Of a stretch of 48,260 bases of DNA, positions 189 to 44,472 are shown in pieces (the stretch's first letter is position 1; the number at the start of each line of letters is the position of its first letter). The notes under the pieces were generated by a model. It saw only the letters and a program-made list of their open reading frames with translations, did no database searches and had not been told where the DNA came from. Position numbers and translations under genes: made by a program. This DNA comes from a virus (lineage: Duplodnaviria > Caudoviricetes), in IMG/VR virus record IMGVR_UViG_3300022891_000004, positions 1-48,260 of that record, one strand, 5' to 3'.

Positions 189-1430
189 GTGCTGAGCGTC
201 CTCACATTGCGAGGTCCTGGCGCGCCGCCGAACTGGAATCGGCTGTCCTTTCTCGGCATGCAATTGAAGCTTTTGAGCACGGTGGATGCCGCCTCGCCGT
301 TCTTTGGCCAGACGCCCACCGTGGTCCCCGGTGATGAATGGGTGCTCGCGGGCCTGACGACCCCGGACAGCTACGCGCTTCTGCCCTTAAGCGATGGCAC
401 CGCCTCCTATGCAGGGGGAGCCACCCGACAGAGCTGGCTCAATGCGATCTATGACCGCTCGATGCGAGATTGGTATGCGACGGATGAGGTGGGCGACACC
501 TTCACGATCGTCGTTAACGATCAATCGCCTACGCAAACTGCCTCGATTCCAACACAGCAGTGGTATACGCACATCCCGATCACCCCGGTCATTCTGGGGG
601 ACTACGTCAGTGATCCGGATGATGCCGAGAGCCTGCTTGCCTACTCAGGTCTTTCCGTGTCGGGCCTGTCGATCGTCTCGCACGTCTACAACCCAGGCCA
701 GGTCAACGAGCGCACCGTCTGGCAGATCCAGGGCACTCCAGGCGCCGCCGGCTCAGGCTCGATCAGCCTCATCGCAACAGACCCGTATGGCGCCACGCTC
801 AATCTCAGTGCATTCAGCTATGACACGGACGAGGCCATACTCGTACCCCAGGTCAGTACCGGGACCACGACTCTGGCGATAGGCCTTGCCGCTTTTGATA
901 GCGCAGGACTTAACCTCGTTGGCATCATCCCGGAGCTGAGTGGCGTTGCGGTCGGCAACATCTTCAGTCAGATCCCGCCGGCTTTGACGTATGTGATCCC
1001 CGGCACCGCCGCGGTTCTCTACGTCAGTGGTGTCGCCCGCCCCGTCGTTATTGGCCTGACGCAGGCCGCCGCCATCGCAGCCCTTGAGGCCGCCGGCTTC
1101 ATCGTCAGCGTCGAGGCCCAATACACCGAGGATGACGAGAGCTTTGGACTTGTCATCGCGCAGTCGCCCTCATCCGGGGTTGCGCTTGCTGGGGAAACCG
1201 TCCTCATCACCGTCTCATTGGGCGTGCTCGACGTCCTGGCTGAGGTGCGTGCTCACAAGCCCGGGTTCTTTGACGGCCTCTACCGTGTGCCAGGCGATAC
1301 GTTTAATCTGACGGAGCCTGAGCAGTATTCGCCCTACTGGATGGAATTCATTAATGGTGTCCCGGCCAGTTGGGCCGGACGAATCGCTGTGTTCAACCCT
1401 TACGTGGATCGGGAGATCCTGGAGTTTTGA
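189..1430 (+). CDS. Ig-like + tandem PASTA domain protein, putative virion decoration
   Basis: PVVIGLTQAAAIAALEAAGF...GLVIAQSPSSG...VLITVSLG fits a PASTA repeat, preceded by a degenerate copy; ...IQGTP...ISLIATDPYGAT is Ig/cadherin-like. Confidence 0.75.
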   Translation: MLSVLTLRGPGAPPNWNRLSFLGMQLKLLSTVDAASPFFGQTPTVVPGDEWVLAGLTTPDSYALLPLSDGTASYAGGATRQSWLNAIYDRSMRDWYATDEVGDTFTIVVNDQSPTQTASIPTQQWYTHIPITPVILGDYVSDPDDAESLLAYSGLSVSGLSIVSHVYNPGQVNERTVWQIQGTPGAAGSGSISLIATDPYGATLNLSAFSYDTDEAILVPQVSTGTTTLAIGLAAFDSAGLNLVGIIPELSGVAVGNIFSQIPPALTYVIPGTAAVLYVSGVARPVVIGLTQAAAIAALEAAGFIVSVEAQYTEDDESFGLVIAQSPSSGVALAGETVLITVSLGVLDVLAEVRAHKPGFFDGLYRVPGDTFNLTEPEQYSPYWMEFINGVPASWAGRIAVFNPYVDREILEF

Positions 1431-25342: not shown

Positions 25343-25777
25343 ATGGAAACTCTCGGACAGAAACGTGATCGATTCACCCGTGCCCTTGCGGAGTGGATTC
25401 TGGCTGTAAACAAGCTACCGGGGCATACCTTGCGACTGTGCGAGGCGCTGAGGTCCGATGAGCAGTCCGAGATCAACGCTATAGGGAATGAGGGTCGAAA
25501 GGCCCTCGTTTCCTATCTGATGCCCGCCTATCCCGAGCTTGCCAAGCGCATCGCGAACAACACCGGCTCCGGGATACGCACCTCGTTGCATGGGGATGGC
25601 CTTGCGGCTGACCTGCAATTATTCGTAGAGGGCAAATGGATCAGCAATGGCAATGACCCACATTGGGTTAAGGTGGGTGAGATGTGGGAAGCGATGGGTC
25701 CGGATCACAAATGGGGCGGAAATTTTCCTAAGCCTGATGGGAATCATGTGTCTATACAGCATGAAGGTCGTTCCTAA
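25343..25777 (+). CDS. Endolysin, M15-family Zn peptidase
   Basis: EALRS..Q...SLHGDGLAADL...WGGNF..PDGNHVS. Confidence 0.88.
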   Translation: METLGQKRDRFTRALAEWILAVNKLPGHTLRLCEALRSDEQSEINAIGNEGRKALVSYLMPAYPELAKRIANNTGSGIRTSLHGDGLAADLQLFVEGKWISNGNDPHWVKVGEMWEAMGPDHKWGGNFPKPDGNHVSIQHEGRS

Positions 25778-32855: not shown

Positions 32856-33043
32856 GTCTCGTGTCTTCTTGCGCCATCGATATAGCCCTCGAGCATCGCT
32901 GCCAAAATCAGAGCCATGATCAGCCAGTATTTCCATGTAGTCATGCCAATGCCCGCTGAAGACAGCACAGCGCCCAGAGTCAAGAAAATCACGCCCTGAA
33001 TGGCGCAACGCATAAATAATCGCTTTGTAAATATTCTGTTCAT
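32852..33043 (-). CDS. Small 2-TM membrane protein
   Basis: Two hydrophobic segments. Confidence 0.55.
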   Translation of the reverse strand: MNRIFTKRLFMRCAIQGVIFLTLGAVLSSAGIGMTTWKYWLIMALILAAMLEGYIDGARRHET

Positions 33044-33046
33044 GGT

Positions 33047-33202
33047 CTATGCCTTTCGATCGACCTGAGACAATCGCCATATCGTCTTCTGACTCACCCC
33101 GAGCCAATAGGCGAGCTGGCGAGTGGAGCGGCGCTTTAGCATCTCGGGAATCGCTTTGCGCTGCTCTTCGCTCAGCTTGAATTTGCGTTTGCGCTTGTTC
33201 AT
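33047..33202 (-). CDS. Small HTH protein (51 aa)
   Basis: KLSEEQRKAIPEMLKRRSTRQLAYWLGVSQKTIWR; read manually. Confidence 0.6.
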   Translation of the reverse strand: MNKRKRKFKLSEEQRKAIPEMLKRRSTRQLAYWLGVSQKTIWRLSQVDRKA

Positions 33203-33804
33203 GCGGCAGCCCTCGAGGGGTCTATCTTGCCGATGAGCTGCATCATCTCATCGTTAAACGCATCGACCTCGCTGGCGAGCTTCTTGATATAGATCTCGTC
33301 CCGATAGACGCGCTTTATGAACAGGGGGAGCTTCGGCCAGTACGAGCAGAAATCTATCCACTCGCGATTAGCGACCCAGAGATTCCCTTGGCACTGCGCG
33401 GCGTGCTCAGGCGGGAGACGATCCGCAAGCAGTACCTCGAGCTGAATATGGGCGAGCTTGGTTTTAATCTCCGTCATGCCGGCCGTGCCGATGAGGCCGT
33501 CCGGGCTGCACCCTTTATTGCCATCTCGAATGAACCCAACCTGCTCCGGCTCAACGTCCGTCATGAACGTGTACAGCGCGCGCGCCTCGGCTTCCATGAC
33601 CTGACCGCGCTCGATGTGGGTATTCGAGTAGCTGTCAGACGGATCGCCCGTCAGGCGCTCTCCTATGAGCTTTAGCAGGTAGGTTCTACGGGTCTTGCCC
33701 TCGCCCTTCGCCATCACGGTCGCAAAGTTGCTCGCGGTGGGGATCCCTAGCCGACAGGCGAACCATTCCGGGCTTCCCTGCTCACAGTTGAATATCTCAA
33801 TCAT
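33199..33804 (-). CDS. exo: YqaJ/lambda-exonuclease family
   Basis: QGSPEWFACRLGIPTAS...GCSPDGLI...EIK...QCQGNLWV. Confidence 0.92.
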   Translation of the reverse strand: MIEIFNCEQGSPEWFACRLGIPTASNFATVMAKGEGKTRRTYLLKLIGERLTGDPSDSYSNTHIERGQVMEAEARALYTFMTDVEPEQVGFIRDGNKGCSPDGLIGTAGMTEIKTKLAHIQLEVLLADRLPPEHAAQCQGNLWVANREWIDFCSYWPKLPLFIKRVYRDEIYIKKLASEVDAFNDEMMQLIGKIDPSRAAA

Positions 33805-34529
33805 GAGCGCTTCCTCTTGGCCTCAATCGTGCGGATGACCTCGGAGTAGTTCTTCGCAAGGATCTGATCCAGCGAATCGATGCGGGCCCATTTCATGAAG
33901 GCCTTCTGGTCGGCCTTGACCTCGGTGAGCAGCGCTTTGATATCGGCGACCTGCTCCGGGGATATCGTATCGGCTTGACCATTGCCGTCGTTATCATCGT
34001 TGGTCAGCGTGATGTTGAAGATCAGTAAAGTCAGGTAACGACGCCCGTAGCTCATCGATGAGCCGAAGCCGTGCATAGTCGTCTTGTTGACGTTGCCTTT
34101 TAGGCCAGTCATGTCAATAGGTACATCCACCTGATACGGGCGCGAGTGACCGGCGACATGCGACACCAAGCATGTGATGCGGAAGTAGTCCTTGAGGGGA
34201 CAGTCTGCGGTACCAAAGGACAGGGAGAAGCCGTTCTCCGTATACACGGGGATGACCTTCTCATTGACACTTTCAAGATCCGCATACCTTGATTGCGTCG
34301 ACTCGTTTGGCTTATTGCGGAAAATCTTTGGAAGCTCCTTCTGAGTGGCCTTCATTGCGGTATTGAAGGCCATCTCTGCGTTACGAGCGGCTATTCGCTC
34401 ATACATCTCGAGAAGCTTCTCCGTCTTTGCAACATCAATGCTCGGATCACTCGCCGCTCGGCTAATGATGTCGAGGATGTTGGAGGGCTCCGGCATTCCT
34501 GGTAGCGTTTGCTGTACGACTGCGCTCAT
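33801..34529 (-). CDS. erf: ERF-family ssDNA annealing protein
   Basis: RYADLE...GSSMSYGRRY.....FNI...DDNDG. Confidence 0.9.
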   Translation of the reverse strand: MSAVVQQTLPGMPEPSNILDIISRAASDPSIDVAKTEKLLEMYERIAARNAEMAFNTAMKATQKELPKIFRNKPNESTQSRYADLESVNEKVIPVYTENGFSLSFGTADCPLKDYFRITCLVSHVAGHSRPYQVDVPIDMTGLKGNVNKTTMHGFGSSMSYGRRYLTLLIFNITLTNDDNDGNGQADTISPEQVADIKALLTEVKADQKAFMKWARIDSLDQILAKNYSEVIRTIEAKRKRS

Positions 34530-34670
34530 TTAGATCTCTCCGAATCGTGGTATGCCGGCATCATCAGCGGCCAGGTCCTGCCAGTCCTTAGGAACTGGCT
34601 CCGCGCCATACTTATGACGCAGTTCCTCTATTCGCTCAGCGTCATAAGAGAGAGGGTGTTCTTTGTTCAT
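34530..34670 (-). CDS. Hypothetical protein (46 aa)
   Basis: Fills the operon gap; read manually. Confidence 0.45.
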   Translation of the reverse strand: MNKEHPLSYDAERIEELRHKYGAEPVPKDWQDLAADDAGIPRFGEI

Positions 34671-34828
34671 GGTATATAGTTCCGCTTGCAGTTCTCTGAT
34701 GGCGGATCAATTCCGCGCTGTCTCTTGCGCTTATAGCAATCGCGGTAGGCAAGAGCGACCAGTACAAACCAGCCCATCGTCAGGCCACCGACAATCAGCA
34801 CCTTCGCGTTGTACAAAAACTCGCTCAT
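34667..34828 (-). CDS. Small membrane protein
   Basis: VLIVGGLTMGWFVLVALAY. Confidence 0.5.
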   Translation of the reverse strand: MSEFLYNAKVLIVGGLTMGWFVLVALAYRDCYKRKRQRGIDPPSENCKRNYIP

Positions 34829-35031
34829 GACGGCCAAAACCCATATTCCGCGTGGAAGTCCTGCCGCAGTTTCCGAATGAACTTTCGGTATGCTGTGTTC
34901 CTCAAGATCACGCGTCTTAGTTCCCATCCGTCATCCTTCCCGTACACCTTAAACACCATGCGGCCGGCGATGACGTTCAGTTTATCCGCGTGGTCGAGTG
35001 CATCGGCGAGGTCTGCGTATTCGTATTTCAT
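34825..35031 (-). CDS. Hypothetical protein
   Basis: Start MKYEY at an ATGA overlap. Confidence 0.5.
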   Translation of the reverse strand: MKYEYADLADALDHADKLNVIAGRMVFKVYGKDDGWELRRVILRNTAYRKFIRKLRQDFHAEYGFWPS

Positions 35032-35228
35032 GGCTCTTTTCCCCAGGATTCGACTCGGATCAGCAGCTCTGTAATGTATCGGCACTCAGCTAATCGCGCG
35101 CTCAGATATTCGCGATTGCCACCGTTCTTGATCTCGTTATCAAACCAATCAGATCTTTCCTTCAATTTCAAAATAAGCAGGCCCACCTGCGCACGCAATC
35201 CGCCTGTTCCTTGTGGGGCTGTGCTCAT
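35028..35228 (-). CDS. Hypothetical protein
   Basis: Flanked by 18-nt junction repeats. Confidence 0.5.
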   Translation of the reverse strand: MSTAPQGTGGLRAQVGLLILKLKERSDWFDNEIKNGGNREYLSARLAECRYITELLIRVESWGKEP

Positions 35229-35653
35229 GGCTGTTTTCCCCACTCTTCCTGAGCTTTCTCTGATTTCTCATCGAGATAAGTTGCTGTCGCGCCGCAGTTC
35301 GGACACATCCATAAAACGTCAGGTGACTGCATCTGGTCGATGTATTGTTCTCTGCTCAGCGCGACAGTACCGCAGCTATGGTCCCCGATATAGCCAACTA
35401 CGTTAAAGCCAACTCCGTGGCAGAACACGAAAGCGTAAGGATTCGTTTCATCCGATAGCCGCTCTCGTCGCTTGCGTAGGTATGTAAGAGCAGCCATGTC
35501 ACACGCCTCGGCCAAACTTGGTTGGAAATTAAGGCATGCCTCGCAAGTGACCATGCTCCTATCAATGACCGACGATCCGCGTGGTGAGTTACACGCTATG
35601 GCTCCGCCATTGTTCCAATGGATTAAAGCGCGCTTGGTGTGTCCGGTGCTCAT
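35225..35653 (-). CDS. Zn-finger-containing hypothetical protein
   Basis: CEAC and WMCPNCG motifs. Confidence 0.55.
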   Translation of the reverse strand: MSTGHTKRALIHWNNGGAIACNSPRGSSVIDRSMVTCEACLNFQPSLAEACDMAALTYLRKRRERLSDETNPYAFVFCHGVGFNVVGYIGDHSCGTVALSREQYIDQMQSPDVLWMCPNCGATATYLDEKSEKAQEEWGKQP

Positions 35654-35943
35654 GACTGACGCCCCTCTAGCCACGCGCTTACCTTCTCGCGTGACCCGTG
35701 ACAGACGGCTGGCGCGTAGTTATAGAGGAACGTGCCGTAAGCTTTCAGGCAGTTGATATTGGTGTCGTCTGCTGTACCGAGCGCTCTCATCAAATCGTTC
35801 TCGAGCACAGCCATCAGGAAGTCCCCTGGCGCTATGCGATCAACTAGGTATCTCGTAAGGCCCGGGATCATGTATACAGGGATCTCGCATTTCTGAGCGC
35901 GTAGGGCGTAATACTTTATGAAGTCCTCGTGTTCGGTGCTCAT
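35650..35943 (-). CDS. Conserved phage hypothetical protein
   Basis: GLTRYL....PGDFLMAVLENDL..A...AD..N...GS.E.V..W. Confidence 0.7.
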   Translation of the reverse strand: MSTEHEDFIKYYALRAQKCEIPVYMIPGLTRYLVDRIAPGDFLMAVLENDLMRALGTADDTNINCLKAYGTFLYNYAPAVCHGSREKVSAWLEGRQS

Positions 35944-36170
35944 GGTGGTGGCAACTCCGCTTCTGCTTTATCCGCCCATAGAAGCGCGGTTTCTAGCTGT
36001 GTGATCGCTACAGACATGGCGCGGGATGCGTCTGGATAGCCAAACGTCGTGAACAGCTCCCTCACAGTGCACAGATCAGACAGCGCTCGAATCATGTCAA
36101 CGCGCGCGCAGTTGAGTAGAAAACGTGAGTTAGTTTCTTCCACGTTGGGTTGTTCTATATCGTTGTTCAT
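35940..36170 (-). CDS. Hypothetical protein
   Basis: SRAMSVAITQLETALLWADKA; SD GAGG. Confidence 0.55.
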   Translation of the reverse strand: MNNDIEQPNVEETNSRFLLNCARVDMIRALSDLCTVRELFTTFGYPDASRAMSVAITQLETALLWADKAEAELPPP

Positions 36171-36179
36171 GATTTTCCC

Positions 36180-36500
36180 TCAGCTTTTTTGGAGCAGATG
36201 CTGACCACAAACAGGATTGCCGTCAGCATCCTTATATCTCGCATTACGGCTACATCTCATATCAGATGTGTTCATGCCCATCGATCGCTTCAAGATAACC
36301 GTACATCGTTTATTTGTATCTACAGCGCTAGCCTCTGTTTTTATCGCGCACATTCGAATGTCCTCACGCGCCGCGTCGAGCCTGATCTTGGTGTGATGAG
36401 CAACCGATGCCAGAAGCTCGACCCACTGTTCAAGTGGAAGAGACTTTCCGATCTCGTCGATGTTTCTCATGATCTTCGCGGTGTCTAATCCGATGCTCAT
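36180..36500 (-). CDS. Hypothetical protein with C-terminal Zn-binding motif
   Basis: RC...RCSR...VCGQH. Confidence 0.5.
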   Translation of the reverse strand: MSIGLDTAKIMRNIDEIGKSLPLEQWVELLASVAHHTKIRLDAAREDIRMCAIKTEASAVDTNKRCTVILKRSMGMNTSDMRCSRNARYKDADGNPVCGQHLLQKS

Positions 36501-36699
36501 TGGGCACCTGCCTTTGATAGCACTTCCGAGCACGCATCAAATGTGTCGCATAGAGATTTCCATACGATCGGATTCAAATATGGGTAATCAGTTTTATCCA
36601 GGGCAGACATCATCACTTCAATAGCCGAGAGAGCGTTTATTAACTCAGCTTTTAGATCAGGAGCGGCATCTCCTGCGTTCTTTGTCTGGGGTGAGAATG

Positions 36700-36981
36700 T
36701 CACGGCTGTTCTCCTTCCTTGAAGAAGGAACGACAGACCGGGCATTGCAGTTTTGTCTCAGAATCCTTTGCCAACTCTGCGAGCAGAAAGTTCGCCAATT
36801 TGACAGCGGCCCTTGCGACACCTGCGTCCACTGCATTTAGGCCAGGATCAGCAGCAAACCCAGCCATAATCTTGATGGCTGCGTACTCGAGCTTTGTGAG
36901 TCCTTGTGTTCCATAAAGAATCTCGCCGTTAGGAGTGACGAAAGATGGGCTTGGAAACGCGTCTTCTTTTTGAATGCTCAT
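36700..36981 (-). CDS. Conserved phage hypothetical protein
   Basis: AFP...GLTKLEYAAIKIM.G...AVKLANFLLAEL. Confidence 0.7.
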   Translation of the reverse strand: MSIQKEDAFPSPSFVTPNGEILYGTQGLTKLEYAAIKIMAGFAADPGLNAVDAGVARAAVKLANFLLAELAKDSETKLQCPVCRSFFKEGEQP

Positions 36982-36986
36982 CTCAC

Positions 36987-37268
36987 TCACCACAAGTCAT
37001 TGCCGTTTTGGATCCGATCCATCTCACGCGCTTTCTGCATGCGCTCGAGGTAGTTGCTTCCGAAAAACAAAGCGGCGCAGATGAGCATCAACACCCCAAA
37101 TCCAATAGCGATGAAGATCGCCGTGAGACGCCTCATACCGATTTCACCGTGTACAAAAGCATCACCGAATCCGAACACCTCAACGAGTACGCACGTTATG
37201 ACGCCCGTAATGATTCCAATTGACAGGCCGATTGCCGTCGGCTCAGGTTTATTCGTATTCATGTTCAT
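36987..37268 (-). CDS. 2-TM membrane protein
   Basis: Two hydrophobic helices. Confidence 0.5.
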   Translation of the reverse strand: MNMNTNKPEPTAIGLSIGIITGVITCVLVEVFGFGDAFVHGEIGMRRLTAIFIAIGFGVLMLICAALFFGSNYLERMQKAREMDRIQNGNDLW

Positions 37269-37423
37269 GTGTGTCCGATGTTGGAGACGGGGTTTAAAAG
37301 GTCGGCGCGATCTTCAGTCTTTGGAACCAAGTAGCTCACCAGGCGCTCATTGCCCTTCATCAGCAGTCGCTGAAACTCCAGCGCTGTGAGGGTGTCCGCG
37401 AATTCCTGTTCGACTTTGTCCAT
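37265..37423 (-). CDS. Hypothetical protein (52 aa)
   Basis: MDKVEQEFADTLTALEFQRLL...; read manually. Confidence 0.5.
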   Translation of the reverse strand: MDKVEQEFADTLTALEFQRLLMKGNERLVSYLVPKTEDRADLLNPVSNIGHT

Positions 37424-37428
37424 TGTTT

Positions 37429-37677
37429 TTAGCCGATTTCGTATGCGCCTGACGCGATCCCCGCAGCGATCGCGGCTCGATGTTGACGATCACCTTCATC
37501 ATTCAAGGCTTTCAGAAATAAGCGCGCCTGGAATGTGTCAATCGGCATACCGTCTGCGTCCAATACGATGCGGTCTTCGGTAATGCCGTAGACCTCCCCG
37601 CCAAACTTGAACCATCTGCGCGTCACGGTGCCGAGTTCTACGTCATCGGTCGCGATCAATTCTAAAGTTTGATTCAT
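37429..37677 (-). CDS. Early hypothetical protein
   Basis: Preceded by the 50-nt element and cactaggacacgcaaac leader. Confidence 0.65.
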   Translation of the reverse strand: MNQTLELIATDDVELGTVTRRWFKFGGEVYGITEDRIVLDADGMPIDTFQARLFLKALNDEGDRQHRAAIAAGIASGAYEIG

Positions 37678-37694
37678 GTTTGCGTGTCCTAGTG

Positions 37695-37744
37695 GGTTCA
37701 GAGTCGAGAGCCTGCTTACGCGGACTCTCTGCTATGAATCAACC
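37695..37744 (-). repeat. 50-nt structured intergenic element, copy A
   Basis: (-) GGTTGATTCATAGCAG-agagtccgc GTAA gcaggctct-CGACTCTGAACC. Confidence 0.85.
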
Positions 37745-37900
37745 CTGGTACCCGGAAGATCTGCCGTACTGGGCACCAGCGGCTATGCGTTTGTAGATGC
37801 GGCGCAGGTCGCTGAACGTAGCTGGCTCGCGAGCGCTGAAGTTCAGGCGCATCGCGGCACGCCAATCACACATCTGGCCATATTCGAAACGCTTAAACAT
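37739..37900 (-). CDS. Early hypothetical protein (53 aa)
   Basis: SD GGAG; MFKRFEYGQMCDW...; stop TGA lies inside repeat A. Confidence 0.6.
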   Translation of the reverse strand: MFKRFEYGQMCDWRAAMRLNFSAREPATFSDLRRIYKRIAAGAQYGRSSGYQG

Positions 37901-38114
37901 GTTGAGTCTCCAGTGGTTCAGAGTCGAGGGTTAGGGCAAGGAGAAGAAATTCTTCAGACACTGCGTCTATTTGCTGATCGTCGCACGCACTATCTACCAC
38001 CGCTTCGATGCTCAGGCCCCAGTGAGAGAACATCAGGCAACGGTCACGGAAATCTTCGTACAACGCTTGCGCGATTGCTGGTGTGAGATCGTTGATGTGG
38101 TGGATCGTGAGCAT
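37893..38114 (-). CDS. Early hypothetical protein
   Basis: Follows repeat B; 3' end overlaps the partial repeat. Confidence 0.55.
   Translation of the reverse strand: MLTIHHINDLTPAIAQALYEDFRDRCLMFSHWGLSIEAVVDSACDDQQIDAVSEEFLLLALTLDSEPLETQHV
37915..37926 (-). repeat. Partial copy (12-nt flank) of the 50-nt element
   Basis: GGTTCAGAGTCG on the + strand. Confidence 0.7.
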
Positions 38115-38133
38115 CTGCGTGTCTTTGCTGATT

Positions 38134-38183
38134 GGTTCAGAGTCGGAGGCCCGATTGCTCAGGCCTCCTGCTATGAATCAACC
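38134..38183 (-). repeat. 50-nt structured intergenic element, copy B
   Basis: (-) GGTTGATTCATAGCAG-gaggcctga GCAA tcgggcctc-CGACTCTGAACC. Confidence 0.85.
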
Positions 38184-38339
38184 TTCGACGTAGGTCTCGA
38201 TGCGCTCGTAGAACGCGTCTATGTCCGTATCGGTCTGCTCGTACTCATGACGCACATCGCGGCGCGCGATCTCTATGGAGACGCCGTAAGACTTGGCGTA
38301 CATCTGCGCTTCGGCTTCCATCTCTGCGGTGAATTGCAT
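38178..38339 (-). CDS. First early gene, acidic 53-aa protein
   Basis: SD AGGAG in cactaggagacgcaaacATG; stop TGA lies inside repeat B. Confidence 0.65.
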   Translation of the reverse strand: MQFTAEMEAEAQMYAKSYGVSIEIARRDVRHEYEQTDTDIDAFYERIETYVEG

Positions 38340-38374
38340 GTTTGCGTCTCCTAGTGTTTGGGCCAGTGGGAAGG

Positions 38375-38404
38375 ACTGTAAACCTACTTGCGTACGCTTG
38401 TCAA
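38375..38404 (-). promoter_or_regulatory. Leftward sigma70-type promoter
   Basis: TTGACA-N18-TACAGT on the - strand. Confidence 0.7.
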
Positions 38405-38426
38405 CATCAATGTGGACGAGTATATT
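38398..38426 (+). promoter_or_regulatory. Rightward sigma70-type promoter (predicts a leaderless HTH mRNA)
   Basis: TTGTCA-N17-TATATT; ATG begins at 38433. Confidence 0.65.
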
Positions 38427-38432
38427 CACCAC

Positions 38433-38651
38433 ATGATTAATCCAATAGAAATGCTGCGTACGCACGTAGGCACACGCTCCAAACGAGAAGTGGCACGCGA
38501 GATGGGAATCTCAGCAACGCTGCTTTGCGATACGTTAAATGGAAAGCGGACGCCAGGCCGGAAGATTCTGAATTATCTGGGCCTGAAACGTACCCAGGAA
38601 GTGAGCTACGAGGTTAACGGCGCGCCGAAGAACAAGCGCAGACGCTCGTGA
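38433..38651 (+). CDS. XRE/Cro-like HTH regulator
   Basis: [33 protein letters not shown]. Confidence 0.85.
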
Positions 38652-38962
38652 TCTGCCCCAGCTGTCAGGGCGAAACGAACGTCATCGACAGCCGCGCCTA
38701 TTCCGGCTCCGTGCGCAGGCGCCGCGAGTGCATTAAGTGTGAGCAACGATTCACGACGTTCGAGGTGGTCTCGACAGGCTTAGGAGGACATCCTAATCAC
38801 CTGATCATCTTGGATAAGCGCACGTTCTCAGATCAGATTCGCAGCATGTTTGAGCTGACCCTCAATGAGGTGTTGCTCAAGAGTCGGCCAATCTTTCCAG
38901 ACAGCCAGTCAGAGGAATCATCAGCACAAACGAAAAAGCCCACCGGTGAGGGTGAGCCTTGA
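38648..38962 (+). CDS. NrdR-type Zn-ribbon protein lacking the ATP-cone
   Basis: MICPSC...TNVIDSR.....[18 protein letters not shown]. Confidence 0.8.
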
Positions 38963-38987
38963 CGTGCCGAGGGGCGAGAGATATGTT
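38959..38987 (+). promoter_or_regulatory. Sigma70-type promoter upstream of the structured non-coding region
   Basis: TTGACG-N17-TATGTT. Confidence 0.65.
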
Positions 38988-38993
38988 CGGACC

Positions 38994-39308
38994 GCGACGA
39001 ACGAACGGGAGTAATCCTACTGACTTGCATTCACAAGTCAATAGTTGAACGACCGTTCAACTGCCGCCTTGCCTTAGGCGGGTCAACCATAGCTAAGACA
39101 TGTTTTAAGCCTCACTAGGGGAATCTGCCACAGAGGCTAGGGCCGAATGTAATCGCTGGCCCAAGGCAGCACGGGGCGTCAGACCGTGAAAGTGAAGCGA
39201 GAGATGGAGTCTGTTCGCACGACCATCCCTGATGGCTCTACAGGGCACTGAGAGGTCAGGATGAATTCCCATTCTCGCTTTCTGCGGGAATGGGGTGAAT
39301 TCGCCTGA
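38994..39308 (+). ncRNA. Candidate structured ncRNA / replication origin
   Basis: No credible ORF; about nine consecutive stem-loops downstream of a promoter. Confidence 0.55.
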
Positions 39309-39333
39309 GTGGATACGAGATAAGAGGTCAGCA

Positions 39334-39627
39334 ATGAAAATCACTAGAAGCTGGATTAGCGAAAATGGGGCTTGGACTGCGGCAATGTTGGCCGAGGTGG
39401 GAATTGAATGGCCACCGTTCAAAGGTTGGGTGGATTCTCTGGTGGGTAGAGAGATCACCGAGGCACAAAGAATCAATATAGAAGGATTGAATCGTCAGAG
39501 AAACGATAAGCACGCGGCGGATGCGGTGAGGCATGCAGCAAAAGCCGAACAGGTTTATTACACGAGACCAGACGGCAAAGGGGATTGGGTTGGATCATGG
39601 GAGAAACCTGAAGGCTGGTTCTCATGA
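39334..39627 (+). CDS. Hypothetical protein
   Basis: SD GAGG; NGAWTAAMLAEVGIEWPP.KGW...L.GREIT. Confidence 0.6.
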   Translation: MKITRSWISENGAWTAAMLAEVGIEWPPFKGWVDSLVGREITEAQRINIEGLNRQRNDKHAADAVRHAAKAEQVYYTRPDGKGDWVGSWEKPEGWFS

Positions 39628-40094
39628 AACTCCCACCTGATTGGCTCGAACAACTCAAATCCGAATACCCCCAACGCTACGGACCTCAAGGCTGGTTGAG
39701 AGTCAGAACGATCCTTCCTCAGTCCATCAGTGCAGGCGCTACTTGGGAGCAGATCCTCTCAGGTACGCGGGCTTACAGAGAATACTGTCTCGCCACCGGA
39801 TCAATCGGCACGCAACACGTCAAGTCCGCTTCAACCTTCTTCGACTACCGCACCCAAGGGTGGACGGAGGACTACGCCCCACCTGAGAAACCACAGAGCG
39901 CCGCAGAACAGAAGCTCAATGCAAGGTGGGAGCAATTAAAAGCCCGCGCCCTATCGATCGGATTCAGATCCCCGATGGCGGTTGAGAGCTGCGATGTGTT
40001 TGAAACCTTCCTGAAGCGTGCCGAGCGCGAGCAACCAAGTCCCGTGCAGAACGTCGTAAGCCTATTGGCTCGTGATAAGTCGATCAGGAGTTGA
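39624..40094 (+). CDS. Replication initiator C-terminal-domain-like protein
   Basis: YPQRYG...GATWEQILSGTRAY..YC...GTQHVKSASTFF resembles the C-terminal part of phage replisome organisers. Confidence 0.5.
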   Translation: MKLPPDWLEQLKSEYPQRYGPQGWLRVRTILPQSISAGATWEQILSGTRAYREYCLATGSIGTQHVKSASTFFDYRTQGWTEDYAPPEKPQSAAEQKLNARWEQLKARALSIGFRSPMAVESCDVFETFLKRAEREQPSPVQNVVSLLARDKSIRS

Positions 40095-40114
40095 CATACG
40101 CAAGCGCTTGCGTA
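40091..40114 (+). promoter_or_regulatory. TTGACA followed by a perfect 18-bp palindrome (operator-like)
   Basis: TTGACA 40091-40096, then TACGCAAGC|GCTTGCGTA 40097-40114; -10 not clear. Confidence 0.6.
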
Positions 40115-40288
40115 ATCATAAAAGCGTTAGGTGATAGAGCTAGTTTACATCTACTCATCAAGGGTGTTTGCAGTCATGCAGATGGAGCCGTTAGGAGCGG
40201 TCGCCGGCACAGCCGGACGGCACATATAACCGGCCAGCGCGCCGCCTACTACTGGCGCGCTGGTCTGAGCTACGAGAAGGCATGAGTC

Positions 40289-40606
40289 ATGACGACCATA
40301 GAAGACTTAAAAGCTTCTTACGATTGGGAAGCTGCATTCGGGTACGCGGATTTTGAAATTTCTGATGTTGCAGAAATCCGCAACGCGATTGAAGGAGAGA
40401 ACGACGCTGATGATTGGATCATCTGGGGAAAGCTGAATAACGGCGATTTTTTCTTTCTTAGCGCTGGGTGTGATTATGCAGGCTGGGATTGCCGAGCTAG
40501 TGGCCACTCTCATCGCTTTCCCACAGAACAAGAGTTAATCCTGATGGGCATGGATCGTGGCGCGCGTGAGCGATTCGGGTTACTGACGCCAGGGGAAACG
40601 GTTTGA
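40289..40606 (+). CDS. Hypothetical protein
   Basis: EGENDADDWI..G.L..G..FFLSAGCDYAGWDC. Confidence 0.7.
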   Translation: MTTIEDLKASYDWEAAFGYADFEISDVAEIRNAIEGENDADDWIIWGKLNNGDFFFLSAGCDYAGWDCRASGHSHRFPTEQELILMGMDRGARERFGLLTPGETV

Positions 40607-40824
40607 ACAAGGTATCTGATGCGTTAGACGCCGAGATGGACGAAGCCTTAAATGACATGGGCTACCCGTCTCGCATTAAACAGCTCGAAGACGCTCTCGC
40701 TCAGGCGAGACGCGATGTCATGGAATACATGATGGTCGAGAACTTTCTCGTAGGCGCTGATGTGGTCACGAAACCTCAGTTTCAGAAGCTCCATGAGATG
40801 GTGCGGGAGTTCAAAAAGCTATGA
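40603..40824 (+). CDS. Hypothetical protein
   Basis: Overlap-coupled ORF. Confidence 0.5.
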   Translation: MNKVSDALDAEMDEALNDMGYPSRIKQLEDALAQARRDVMEYMMVENFLVGADVVTKPQFQKLHEMVREFKKL

Positions 40825-41060
40825 GCGTGATACCGATTTTGAAAAGCCACATGAAAAGCCACAGAGAGCAGATCGCCGACCATGACGCTTATGCTCAGAA
40901 GGTGATGGATAGATATTTGGTGGCGCTACCGGTCTTGTCCGATGCGCAGTTTGCCCTGCTGCAGAGTGCATTCGCGCTTGCTCACGCGGAAGGCTGCGAG
41001 TATGCGACTCAGCAAAACATAGCCATGTTTGAGAAAACATTGAGCCACTTATCCTCATGA
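40821..41060 (+). CDS. Hypothetical protein
   Basis: Overlap-coupled ORF. Confidence 0.55.
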   Translation: MSVIPILKSHMKSHREQIADHDAYAQKVMDRYLVALPVLSDAQFALLQSAFALAHAEGCEYATQQNIAMFEKTLSHLSS

Positions 41061-41389
41061 GCAAGAACCCACACGCAGCTGCGCTCGGTGCGAAGGGCGG
41101 CAAGGCGGGCGTAGGTGCTGCGAAGCGTCGCTCACCGGCTCACTACCGAAAGATGGTTCGGGCGAGGCGCACGCTATCGCCGGCCCAGGCCGACACGGGT
41201 GATGATATCTCGCGCCTCGAGACGGACAATTGCAATTGCGGAGGCTGTTCCATTCTGCTTACCAGCAAAGGCGTATCGCTTTGGTCCGCTGACGGAATGA
41301 CGATCATCCCGCACGCTGACTTCCTACAGATGATCAAATGGTTTCTGATGCCTCAGAGAGCGCGGGACGCGGGCGAGGTGAAGTCGTGA
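41057..41389 (+). CDS. Basic KGG-motif protein
   Basis: KNPHAAALGAKGGKAG...RRS. Confidence 0.6.
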   Translation: MSKNPHAAALGAKGGKAGVGAAKRRSPAHYRKMVRARRTLSPAQADTGDDISRLETDNCNCGGCSILLTSKGVSLWSADGMTIIPHADFLQMIKWFLMPQRARDAGEVKS

Positions 41390-41814
41390 GTGAATCCGAG
41401 TTTAGGCTCTACAAACGTCGCGGATCTATCGAGGCGCGGCCATACGAACACGGAGATCAATCGCGCTTTTCTCTCTCGATTAGTGAGGCCGATTTAAAAC
41501 GGCCCACGTTGCTCGGTGGTTGGGTCGCCCGCAATCCTGACAATCACGACGATCAGTGGTACATCGCGCCCGAGTATTTCGCCAAACATTACGGGGATGA
41601 GGTCGTGAGCGAGTGGCAGCCGATCGAGGCGGCGCCGCGCGATGGCACGCCTATCGATCTATGGCACAAGAACGGATTTCGAATCACCGACACCTGGTGG
41701 GACGCTGGGGATGAAATCTGGACGTGCTATTTCGTCGATGAGGAAATCACCCACTGGATGCCGATTCCAGCGCCGCCAGCCAATGCTGACGGAGCACACA
41801 AGGAATCTGTGTGA
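41386..41814 (+). CDS. Two-module fusion protein with C-terminal DUF551-like domain
   Basis: ARNPDNHDDQWYIA..YF module + SEWQPIEAAPRDGT...THWMPIPAPP. Confidence 0.7.
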   Translation: MSESEFRLYKRRGSIEARPYEHGDQSRFSLSISEADLKRPTLLGGWVARNPDNHDDQWYIAPEYFAKHYGDEVVSEWQPIEAAPRDGTPIDLWHKNGFRITDTWWDAGDEIWTCYFVDEEITHWMPIPAPPANADGAHKESV

Positions 41815-42126
41815 CATGGAACGCCTCAGGCTTTTCGAGGATGAGTAATAACAAGCGGGTCACGGGAATGCTCCCGGTGGCCAAATAATAACCAGTAAGC
41901 AAGAAGCGTACCATGATAGCCATATCAAAGCTGATCCTCTTAGGTGCCGTCATCGGCCTCATCACGATGATCGTGACTCCCTACTACGCCCTGCGAGCGC
42001 AAGCGCTATGAGATTCGTAGGCTGGTATCTCGGATACGTGGTTGTGGCGTCACTGCTGACGCTGGTCGCGCTTCAGCGCTGGAGCCGGCATCGGCGTCGC
42101 GCTCCTGATTCCTCCGAGGTGCAATC

Positions 42127-42510
42127 GTGAAAGCTCATTTCGTGACGTTCTTTAGCCCAGGTACTTTTCTGGCAGAGGCCACCACGATGGATATCGATTC
42201 GTGGGACGTAGAGAAAGCCAAGAAGATGGCCAAGAAGATCAAGGAACGGCACGGCGCCAGACCTTACGGCTTTCAGTTCACGACCCGCTCACGGAGTACG
42301 AAGGATCTGGACAGCAAAGTGACGAAAACCAGTCCGATGTACTACATCGACTGCAAGATCGAAACGCTTGCAGAGGTCGAGAAGCGCAATGATCCGAAGG
42401 AAGAAATTCTTCGCTCTAACATGCGCTTGAATGGTTGGCACAAGATCGTCAGGACGACTAAGGGATGGGGGTGGATTCAGCCGCTAGAGGCCGGCGATGT
42501 TGTCCTGTAG
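42127..42510 (+). CDS. Conserved phage hypothetical protein
   Basis: FVTFFSPGTFLAE...ARPYGFQF...SPMYY; SD GAGG. Confidence 0.7.
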   Translation: MKAHFVTFFSPGTFLAEATTMDIDSWDVEKAKKMAKKIKERHGARPYGFQFTTRSRSTKDLDSKVTKTSPMYYIDCKIETLAEVEKRNDPKEEILRSNMRLNGWHKIVRTTKGWGWIQPLEAGDVVL

Positions 42511-42855
42511 CTGGTCTAGTGCGTCCGAGGTGCAGAAATGAGTGGCGAATGCGAAGCGTGTGGCGACAAGTTGATCGGCCACGAAGATGAGAGCGCAACC
42601 CGCTGTCGATGGTGTGTGACCGGCTGGAAGCCTTCGAGAGAGGATAAAGGCGCAGCCACGGTGATACCAGACAAAGCCTCGGAGGTTCAATCGTGAACGC
42701 TCCAATTCCATGGGTCGGAAAGCCCGCGAACACTGATCTGCGAGCCCAGCTACACGCCGCCGTAAAACGTGGGGACGAGGCAGAAATCGAGCGCTTACAG
42801 ACGCTCATCAATGAGTTCGCGCGAGAGCAGATCTCGGACAATGGAGACGCGCAAC

Positions 42856-43083
42856 GTGGCTAAAGCAACGATGATCTCCTGGGCAAAAGCAAAGCTCGCT
42901 GTGTCTAAGTCGCTGCGGGTACGCAGCGAGAAAGAGCTGCGAGAGCACTTGGATTTCGCGGGCTACAACGCGCCGGAAGCCTACAGGCTCGGAGTCGAAG
43001 AGACTCAGCATGAATTGATCGCGCGTATCAACGCACTGAGACCCGCTGACAGCGCTGACAATGGAAACGCTGGCAATGGCTAA
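42856..43083 (+). CDS. Hypothetical protein
   Basis: GTG start after GGAG. Confidence 0.45.
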   Translation: MAKATMISWAKAKLAVSKSLRVRSEKELREHLDFAGYNAPEAYRLGVEETQHELIARINALRPADSADNGNAGNG

Positions 43084-43360
43084 TCAGCGTTTCGAAGTGG
43101 CCGTGGCATATACCCAAAGCGCCCAAGACGTTCACAAATCCAGTTGGCACGAAGTGAGCGCCAGCGATGCAGAAGATGCGGCGCGAATCCATGCCGAAGA
43201 CTTTGACTCTGCACGCGACTATACGATTGTGCGTGGCAAGCCGAGGCATTTTTGGGTACGAGACAATGATGGAAAAATCACCAGATGGGAAGTCAGCGGA
43301 GAAGCTGAGCCTGTCTACTACGCGACGGAAGTAACCACTGTCAGCGCATCCTCGCCATGA
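43076..43360 (+). CDS. Hypothetical protein
   Basis: A.DAEDAA...AE...WVRD...V.GEAEPVY.A. Confidence 0.55.
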   Translation: MANQRFEVAVAYTQSAQDVHKSSWHEVSASDAEDAARIHAEDFDSARDYTIVRGKPRHFWVRDNDGKITRWEVSGEAEPVYYATEVTTVSASSP

Positions 43361-43713
43361 TTGAGCTGACTTTGAATGAGGCGACGCCGAGCCTGAATAA
43401 GATGATCAGGCTTCATTGGACCGTTGATAGGAAGCTCAAAGCGAAGTGGGTGAAGATGGTATGGGTTGCGCTTCGATCTCAGCGCATGGGGCCTGTCCAG
43501 CCCTTCTCTCGCGCTCGAGTCACCATCACCCGAATCTCCCCGCGTATGCTCGATAAAGATAATCTTTTCTCATCGGTGAAGCATCCCTTGGATGGACTCA
43601 AAATTTGCAGTGTGATCGTGGATGACAGCCCCGAGCACATCGAGTTGATCGTGCGCCAGGAGAAGGGCAAAGCCGGGACGCGTATCCAGATCGAGCCGCT
43701 GTGCGCTGCCTGA
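43357..43713 (+). CDS. rusA: RusA-like Holliday junction resolvase
   Basis: PSLN...RMLDKDNL...K..LDGL....VIVDDS. Confidence 0.85.
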   Translation: MIELTLNEATPSLNKMIRLHWTVDRKLKAKWVKMVWVALRSQRMGPVQPFSRARVTITRISPRMLDKDNLFSSVKHPLDGLKICSVIVDDSPEHIELIVRQEKGKAGTRIQIEPLCAA

Positions 43714-43866
43714 CTTGTGACACAGAATTTGAACCACGCACGCTAAAGCAGCGGCACTGCCACCTGGGCTGTTATAAACTCGTCCATGATCGCCCGCGCT
43801 GGGAGAGGCGCGACCACACGAGTCACGTCTCGCGCTTTCTCAAAGTCCGCGTGAATGGAGCCCAGA

Positions 43867-44472
43867 TTGAAATGCCTTCTTACGCTCGTTCTGCTGCTCG
43901 GTAGTCTGAGCGCCCACGCCCAGCTCATCATGTCGTGTGCGGAGCCGGTGGCGGCCGGCGCCTCGGCCAATACCTGCAAGACGCTTCAATACTCAGAGGC
44001 CTCTGATTCGCTCTCCGTCGTCTCATCGGCCAACGGGGTTTGGTCTGGTTCCACGTGGAACACGTACGCCAAAACCCCCGCCACCTCAAAGCTCGTGCAC
44101 TGTCTCGTACCCGTGATCGTCGGCCTGCCCTTCAAGGCGGGCGTGATCGGTGCGGATCCGTGTCCTTCGAAAGCCTGGGTCCAAAAGAGCACCCAGAGCC
44201 CGCCCAAGGCCGGGCAGGTGAGGATGGAATGGCCCGCCGTGACGAAATACACGGACGGTAAGACGATTGCTCCGGGGGATCATCTGGGATATGAGATTTC
44301 CTGGTGGGAGGGAAATACCTTCCCGCATGTCACGCGCCGCCTCTCCACCGCCAGCACCACCGCCCTCATCACGCTGCCCACAGGGCGGATCTGTGCGGAC
44401 GTTGTGACCAAGACTCGGAACGGCAACTCGAGCGCGACGCCTGCGCTGTGCCTGAATCTCGGTCAGCCCTGA
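43867..44472 (+). CDS. Secreted Cys-rich protein with FN3-like C-terminal domain
   Basis: TTG start after GGAG; signal peptide MKCLLTLVLLLGSLSAHA-Q; W...TKYTDG......GYEISW. Confidence 0.65.
   Translation: MKCLLTLVLLLGSLSAHAQLIMSCAEPVAAGASANTCKTLQYSEASDSLSVVSSANGVWSGSTWNTYAKTPATSKLVHCLVPVIVGLPFKAGVIGADPCPSKAWVQKSTQSPPKAGQVRMEWPAVTKYTDGKTIAPGDHLGYEISWWEGNTFPHVTRRLSTASTTALITLPTGRICADVVTKTRNGNSSATPALCLNLGQP

Follow-up and report, generated by a model that had tools for sequence, protein, structure and literature searches.

A repeated GNRA-capped hairpin between early phage genes as a candidate RNase III signal of the T7 type

The closest described counterparts of the element reported here are the early RNase III signals of phage T7, which were the best match to it. 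We folded the hairpins ahead of genes 0.3, 0.5, 1, 1.1 and 1.3 from the T7 record, which is without annotation of these sites, and the names used for them (R0.3, R1.1 etc.) are those that we take to belong to them. For R1.1, the assignment agrees with the pairs described in PMC1540722. In the hairpins before genes 0.3, 0.5 and 1.1, a variable upper stem is framed by 8 and 10 nt of identical flank. The loop is GCAA in two of them, and each stands between the following gene and a preceding stop codon or promoter. Published work reports that 11 bp between the cut and the tetraloop is the minimal helix for cutting by E. coli RNase III and that the distal-box sequence may differ between taxa (PMC1540722), that RNase III also cuts RNAs of lambda, T7 and T3 (PMC5371410), that T7 grows without RNase III (PMC6938266), and that a 3' hairpin on the upstream RNA is a stabiliser (PMC3867540). 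Two further kinds of described sequence are relevant for comparison. The attC site is defined, on the folded strand, by an RYYYAAC box that comes first and a GTTRRRY box that comes last (PMC5027507), and boundary sequences, according to PMC3029335, are not findable at most mosaic junctions.

The window, by which we mean the whole 48,260-nt stretch of DNA analysed, is a complete virus record of 48 kb with a 127-nt terminal repeat, and the runs in which the phage occurs are catalogued as leaf litter and soil metagenomes, X1 possibly being its source. No RNA run was among those listed, and the four runs examined, X1-X4, consist of contigs. PHROG matches assign its virion genes to the epsilon15/phiV10/BPP-1 type of podophage, and the closest cultured capsids are 52-57% identical. 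The early region is lambdoid in layout, with divergent sigma-70-like promoters at ~38400, an HTH gene on the right, and an extended leftward series of small ORFs in which Erf, YqaJ and NinB-like genes come further along (Table 1). An equal arrangement, in which the leftward promoter diverges from a rightward promoter and HTH gene, was identified in L136.

Table 1. Positions of the early-region features discussed in the text, numbered from the first base of the window.
Feature	Position	Strand	Description
Element copy W1	37695-37744	-	50 nt, after gene 3; TGA stop 37741-37739; one C.A mismatch in upper stem; GUAA loop
Element copy W2	38134-38183	-	50 nt, after gene 1; TGA stop 38180-38178; 10-pair upper stem with GCAA loop between left and right arms
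Right-arm remnant	37915-37928	-	Inside the 3' end of gene 2, just before the gene 3 leader; no left arm or hairpin
Leftward early promoter, sigma-70-like	38375-38404	-	TTGACA, 18 nt, TACAGT; consensus match only
Gene 1 leader	38337-38356	-	20 nt with RBS and ATG; repeated at 37675-37694 with 1 mismatch
Early gene 1	38178-38339	-	53 aa; no relative found
Early gene 2	37893-38114	-	73 aa; extends through the remnant and overlaps the start of gene 3
Early gene 3	37739-37900	-	53 aa; relative P0003
Early gene 4	37429-37677	-	82 aa; 3' part divergent and longer in L066
Erf-type annealing protein	33801-34529	-	Same strand, further down
YqaJ-type exonuclease	33199-33804	-	Same strand, further down

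Several other features of the window were observed in the course of these analyses. Words of the type TGCGTACGCA / TACGCA are present at 38389 and 38455-38464, at the divergent promoters, and at 40097-40114, by a promoter-like site at 40091; a similar word is present in the L136 promoter, and these words are probable operators of the HTH protein encoded at 38433-38651. The ORF at 35940-36170 (minus strand), which belongs to the same leftward run, matched the Acb2/Tad1 hairpin domain (Pfam PF24729, E 4e-5, below the curated cut-off) and is a candidate anti-defence gene. In the rightward operon, a 26-nt repeat (42111-42136 and 42677-42702, plus strand, 88% identical) with a GAGG RBS and GTG represents a second shared leader. 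A 413-aa ORF at 189-1430 (plus strand), partly common to the capsid relative G001, has a PASTA domain (E 3e-14), which is unusual in a phage. Finally, a 16-bp GAAA-capped hairpin at 25481-25516 (plus strand) lies inside the M15-type lysin ORF at 25343-25777, in a stretch with about 25-30 extra residues relative to the L001 relative, and is followed by an HNH gene.

The two copies of the element, W1 and W2, have 76% identity and a spacing of 439. Their 28 flank bases (16 + 12 nt on the minus strand) are identical, and the 22-nt cores differ at 12 positions that account for all the differences between them; the chance of all 12 falling in the core is P=5e-6. A sequence-only reading of the window had described both 50-nt copies with their identical 16- and 12-nt flanks, the TGA of the upstream gene inside each and a 12-nt remnant at 37915, and all of these were recovered on recomputation, with the remnant at 37915-37926 being identical to both copies over 12 nt and its match to W1 extending over 14 nt. 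That both upstream genes encode 53 aa holds if gene 1 starts at the ATG at 38339, and an RBS does follow each copy, the one behind W2 being weak (AAAGA). The repeat is not an assembly artefact, because both copies are carried by a contig of an independent run, X2, which covers 37585-38260 with 1 difference that is outside W1 and W2, and by the strain variant L066, in which both are unchanged. Strain variation was apparent away from the element, as 162 nt at 36514-36677 were replaced by 123 in X2.

The sole relative found for gene 2 was a 99% identical protein. The second copy of the gene 1 leader is directly behind W1, before gene 4 (2 matches versus 0 expected), and the gene 3 leader is related to the leader common to genes 1 and 4. 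Based on this arrangement, we infer an ancestral array of gene-element-gene-element-gene-element-gene whose middle element lost its left part, with the consequence that gene 2 would now read on into the start of gene 3. The remnant region (37895-37990) had a folding z of +2.15. A shorter relative of gene 2, which would support the loss of a middle element, was not found.

On the minus strand, both copies were predicted to fold with a 10-pair upper stem, formed by nine core pairs and an invariant G-C, that is closed by a GNRA loop. Below this are an A.G/C.A internal loop, two pairs, a U.C mismatch and four pairs, as the earlier reading had proposed for the extension of the helix, and the two arms pair in register over 19 positions with no bulge. 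The claim that both differing cores form a nine-position stem was borne out fully for W2 (9/9) and for eight of the nine positions in W1, where the ninth is a C.A mismatch. Between the two cores, four pairs are changed on both sides, one on one side, and one U-G has become C.A, and the stem length is unchanged despite 11 stem substitutions. Keeping at least 8/9 core pairs after 11 random substitutions has a probability of P=0.0025, so pairing has been kept, while a formal covariation test with two distinct cores was not significant, as 42/500 shuffles reached the observed value. Hairpins with a GNRA loop and at least 9/10 pairs are by themselves no more frequent in the genome than in Markov controls (3 versus 3.0), and it is their combination with the lower stem that is in excess (3 versus 0.33, with a maximum of 1 in 30 controls). 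When the full 768-nt leader was folded, the W1 and W2 hairpins formed with upper pairs at P>=0.96 except for the C.A. Two other structural interpretations were rejected: a kink-turn or box C/D reading of UGAUUCA/CUGA, which was judged by eye against the consensus and in which the bulge would have 1 nt and the G-C pair is absent, and a two-state refold after cutting.

It had been claimed that the G-U pairs favour RNA of the minus strand. This was contradicted by the folding energies, which were as good or better for the plus strand (-22.7 and -25.9 kcal/mol) than for the minus strand (-18.7 and -25.4 kcal/mol), because the invariant C.A and A.C mismatches turn into G-U on the plus strand. A scan for a promoter reading the plus strand across the element found none. 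We took the element to act as minus-strand RNA because of this result, the GNRA loops, and the orientation of the genes and their promoter.

Together, the position and anatomy of the element suggested that it is an early-mRNA cutting signal for host RNase III, as in phage T7, a reading by analogy to which we assign a probability of roughly 0.55. Of the options offered by the sequence-only reading, processing of this kind was the best supported, by anatomy and by register, with the cutting itself being predicted. Each copy is placed between a stop codon and the next RBS of an early polycistronic unit, as judged from the promoter and gene layout. The helix of 19-25 positions provides about two turns with at least 11 positions from cut to loop, and its non-canonical pairs 11-12 provide an internal loop at the predicted cut, which are the features given in PMC1540722 and PMC3867540. 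The profile for phage-encoded RNase III (PF00636) had no match in the phage (0/1, control 8/14).

To examine the register, we used a home-made 14-point score derived from published E. coli rules, which may not be those of the host, with the box numbering rebuilt from the text of PMC1540722 and checked on R1.1. Among the 8 registers tried, 11 was best for both copies, with W1 scoring 8/14 and W2 7/14 compared to 8/14 for T7 R1.1. At the preset register 11, P was 0.006 for W1, 0.047 for W2 and 0.006 for R1.1, and over all registers P for W2 was 0.27. The scores of W1 and W2 are not independent because 6 scored features are common to both, and the score discriminates weakly, since the unrelated lysin-gene hairpin reached 7 (P 0.03), the antisense of W1 reached 8 (register 9) and T7 R0.3 reached 6. 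As distal-box rules may vary by taxon, the register test neither proves nor excludes cutting.

The invariant lower half has optimal pb1, pb2 and pb4 pairs for a 3'-strand cut, the base-side box being 3/4 optimal in both copies, and the 5' strand across the predicted cut reads AGCA (WSSW), as in the in vivo E. coli motif. The loop-side box is good in W1. In W2, and in the copy of the element in the contig L056 described below, this box has a G-C at pb2, which in the published rules is a strong binding antideterminant for E. coli RNase III. No U-A was present at db1 in W1 or W2, and in each of the registers 9 to 14 one half contains a blocking pair. The pb2 pair of W2, which would weaken binding by the E. 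coli enzyme, and the 28 invariant bases with three mismatched positions, which suggest sequence-specific reading, would also be expected if the invariant loop and lower stem were the site of a phage or host RNA-binding protein, or an uncleaved stabilising hairpin, that tunes the translation or decay of the next gene with no RNase III cut. We consider this unlikely. In L056 and at the remnant, the GGAG of the RBS could be paired by the right arm, but such anti-RBS pairing amounts to 4 bp and was predicted for neither W1 nor W2. None of the early ORFs was recognised as encoding a candidate RNA-binding protein, and T7 RNase III sites likewise keep 18 identical flank bases.

The lambdoid layout of the early region, with its divergent promoters, HTH gene and downstream Erf, exonuclease and NinB genes, is also the setting in which a nut- or put-like antitermination signal serving the long leftward operon might be looked for, and the GNRA loops would suit one. 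N-type proteins read the loop and upper stem of nut-type signals, and these are the variable part of the element. In addition, the element is repeated and follows stop codons rather than being located in an untranslated leader, no Rfam match was obtained, and terminator-like sites are not in clear excess (13 versus 8.6 +/- 3.2). The antitermination option that had been put forward thus found no support, and we regard it as very unlikely.

The search with Rfam 15 at the gathering threshold returned 0 matches for the whole window, the best overlap with the element being sX12 at 17 bits against a cut-off of 106 (E 8.6), and nothing significant was obtained on L056 or L066. As no Rfam family matches, which is as the earlier reading had supposed, the sequence family of the element is uncatalogued, while the kind of element is already known. 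The open-access papers searched contained no description of the element; the two flank words occurred in 3 papers that, by their titles, are unrelated human or animal studies.

Searches for the element elsewhere indicated that it is rare. The scan of JGI metagenomes returned 20 loci, of which 3 were real (the record of the window itself, L061, the strain variant L066, and L056) and 17 were chance. In IMG/VR, exact flanks gave 0 loci, loose flanks 45 loci with the stem in none, the GNRA-centred pattern 4 loci and the core-centred pattern 9 loci, none of them real. The pattern scan of GTDB genomes gave 1 locus, a chance match, and nothing in GenBank phages and plasmids matched over the element by BLAST. 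A model of the element (R1) was run on 53 sources, including 22 of the 45 loose-flank loci, 8 of the 17 chance metagenome loci and 2 of the 4 GNRA-centred loci. A common 42-nt look-alike (L005, L050 and others) was rejected, as 5/10 of its upper pairs are broken and it scores 21.7 bits, compared to 76-81 for the true copies. The expectation of further copies was therefore answered in part, by the identical copy in L056 and the pair in L066, with IMG/VR, GTDB and GenBank contributing chance matches only.

Phages related by their capsids (39 loci) did not carry the element in the material searched. In the records of 33 of these 39, the right arm with at most 1 mismatch gave single matches in 4/33 (2 for a control pattern) and was found in 0/6 near-complete records, DNA shared with 33000-44000 was present in 0/5 capsid relatives, and the full records of seven relatives had no R1 match above 12.1 bits. 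These seven included G001, which has 92% capsid identity and a different early module. In G002, whose promoter and HTH layout is the same, the first gene boundary lacks the element. The element is thus optional and not tied to the virion module, a patchy occurrence that fits with a signal that need not be essential, given that T7 grows without RNase III. Scans for relatives based on Erf and on the L056 proteins yielded distant or chance loci only.

L056, a contig of 2570 nt, is made up of small ORFs that are on one strand and belong to no known family, and its positions 1376-1424 are 100% identical to 38132-38180 of the window, that is over 49 bases with the variable core included. The copy begins at the TGA with which a 186-aa ORF ends, extends two bases beyond the right arm and is followed by an RBS and a 94-aa ORF. 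This 49-base identity is the new finding; otherwise L056 and the window have nothing in common at the DNA or protein level. L056 was considered as a chimera and this was rejected as unlikely because a second repeat family stands on both sides of the element. Beyond the element, L056 was not found in runs X1-X4.

The second repeat family of L056 (minus strand; 2325-2405, 1985-2065 and 1040-1115, at three gene boundaries) consists of a near-perfect 18-bp palindrome with GATACT and a shared leader behind it. Two of its copies match each other for about 50 nt, and two ORFs have their TAG stop within the repeat. Its RNA fold is poor (z 0.8, 0.3 and -1.8), and no copy was found in IMG/VR. In appearance it resembles a promoter-operator cassette.

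From the L056 copy and the shared leaders it follows that these blocks have moved or that the genes around them have turned over. The element could be kept mainly as a DNA joint, a boundary or linker sequence, for the shuffling of small early genes by Erf/YqaJ-type recombination, with the fold being minor or restricted to single-stranded DNA. The identity between unrelated genes, which begins exactly at the stop codon, would be expected of such a joint, as would the closer similarity of W2 to the L056 copy in another genome than to its neighbour W1 and the homology of the leaders of genes 1, 3 and 4. P0003 matches gene 3 up to Tyr51 and departs from it where W1 begins, by its last two residues only, which is a weak hint. 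The Erf-type and YqaJ-type proteins encoded by the phage are, from their family matches, candidates for recombination at short homologies, and there are precedents in PeSL cassettes (PMC2839356) and boundary sequences (PMC3029335). For a homology joint, however, neither a covarying stem nor a fixed stem length nor a GNRA loop would be needed. Moreover, in the single strain-level relative, L066, genes 1-3 are unchanged and the break is inside gene 4 (37429-37585), so that variation of the genes between copies, which had been suggested as a check, was seen in 0/1 such relatives, and runs X1-X4 had no joint or loose end at the element among the matches listed. We therefore think it quite unlikely that joining DNA is the main reason for keeping the element. 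The earlier suggestion of a hairpin recombination site did not hold for a site-specific system, as neither a recombinase nor attC anatomy was found, and it survives in the weaker form of a homology joint because an identical copy sits between unrelated genes in L056.

The two roles might also be combined. We speculate that the element is a mobile, self-contained punctuation module that supplies a stop codon, a site for RNA cutting and a place where a new leader can land, and that unrelated phages of the same host trade small early genes, including anti-defence candidates, by recombination in this hairpin, an integrase-free gene-cassette joint that doubles as an RNase III site. We see this as rather improbable, and under it the L056 copy would be the first trace of such gene traffic.

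That the element spans the region from stop codon to RBS, like PeSLs, and has fixed ends around a variable self-complementary centre, like attC, raised the question of whether it is a PeSL-type promoter(-terminator) cassette or an integron-like attC site; a promoter- or operator-like appearance was indeed seen in the second repeat family of L056. We give this scarcely any credence. No sigma-70 -35/-10 boxes were found in W1, W2 or the L056 copy, a -35 box would lie in the variable core, and with respect to a terminator the stem is present and no U-tract was called. The order of the attC boxes is reversed, as GTT precedes AAC on both strands, and the fold is symmetric, with 19 positions paired without a bulge and none of the two or three extrahelical bases that attC has in one arm. 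No integrase or resolvase of the tyrosine or serine recombinase type was found in the phage genome; PF00589, the profile relevant to an IntI in cis, matched 0/1 in G000 (control 14/14), and no PF00239 recombinase was detected.

Returning to the RNase III reading, we propose the following sequence of events. Host RNA polymerase would read left from the promoter to give one polycistronic early RNA, in which each copy would fold into a helix of about 19-25 positions. RNase III would then bind with 11 positions from loop to cut, reading mainly the invariant lower half, and because of the A.G/C.A loop at pairs 11-12 its action would be confined to a nick of the 3' strand (CGAC/U). The predicted bonds are 38142/38141 on the 3' strand and 38170/38169 on the 5' strand of W2, and 37703/37702 and 37731/37730 in W1. 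After such a nick, a 3' hairpin would protect the upstream message, and an unstructured leader of 25-27 nt would precede the next gene; the predicted downstream products were weakly folded. As a by-product, the 28 fixed bases would provide short homologies at gene boundaries at which small genes could be exchanged between phages. Gene shuffling is likely to be such a by-product and not the reason for keeping the fold.

If the element is an RNase III signal, punctuation of early mRNA in the style of T7 extends to a podophage of the epsilon15/BPP-1 type whose early region is lambdoid, and W1 and W2 are a natural substrate pair that differs at a known antideterminant, which is useful and not surprising. 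Of more interest is the identical copy between unrelated genes in another contig, although this is one contig. If such RNA signals were also the joints at which phages exchange small early genes, they would represent concrete and testable boundary sequences for phage mosaicism.

The element can be placed among the known systems as follows. Like the boundary sequences of lambdoid mosaic junctions (as cited in PMC3029335), it is short, located at gene boundaries and, in L056, found with different neighbours, and unlike those proposed sequences it is a structured hairpin with a covarying core. With the PeSLs of the T4-type phages RB49 and phi1 it shares a repeat that runs from stop codon to RBS among ORFans of a variable region and a potential as a recombination joint. 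As described in PMC2839356, PeSLs have sigma-70 boxes, an AT-rich UP region and a terminator tail, which the element does not, and they number about 50 compared to two copies and a remnant here. With attC, as presented in PMC5027507, it has in common the fixed ends, the variable self-complementary centre and the gene stop at the edge.

The T7 signals differ from the element in several respects. There is no sequence similarity between them, the best score of R1 on L137 being 11 bits, and the phage is a podophage with a lambdoid early region and not T7-like. The internal loop is a symmetric 2x2 plus U.C in the element and asymmetric in T7, the fixed bases are the base-side half in the element whereas those of T7 cover the loop-side box, and W2 carries the pb2 antideterminant, unlike the T7 signals. 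Cutting is proven for T7 and predicted, from sequence alone, for the element. Pair 3 from the loop is U-G in W2, as in the distal box of T7 R1.1, and C.A in W1. What the two have in common is their position between the early genes of a polycistronic unit, just before the next RBS, and their construction from identical flanks around an internal loop and a variable upper stem of 9-10 pairs with a GCAA loop. In T7 R1.1, W1 and W2 alike, there are 10 upper positions and the first invariant non-canonical pair is at position 11 from the loop.
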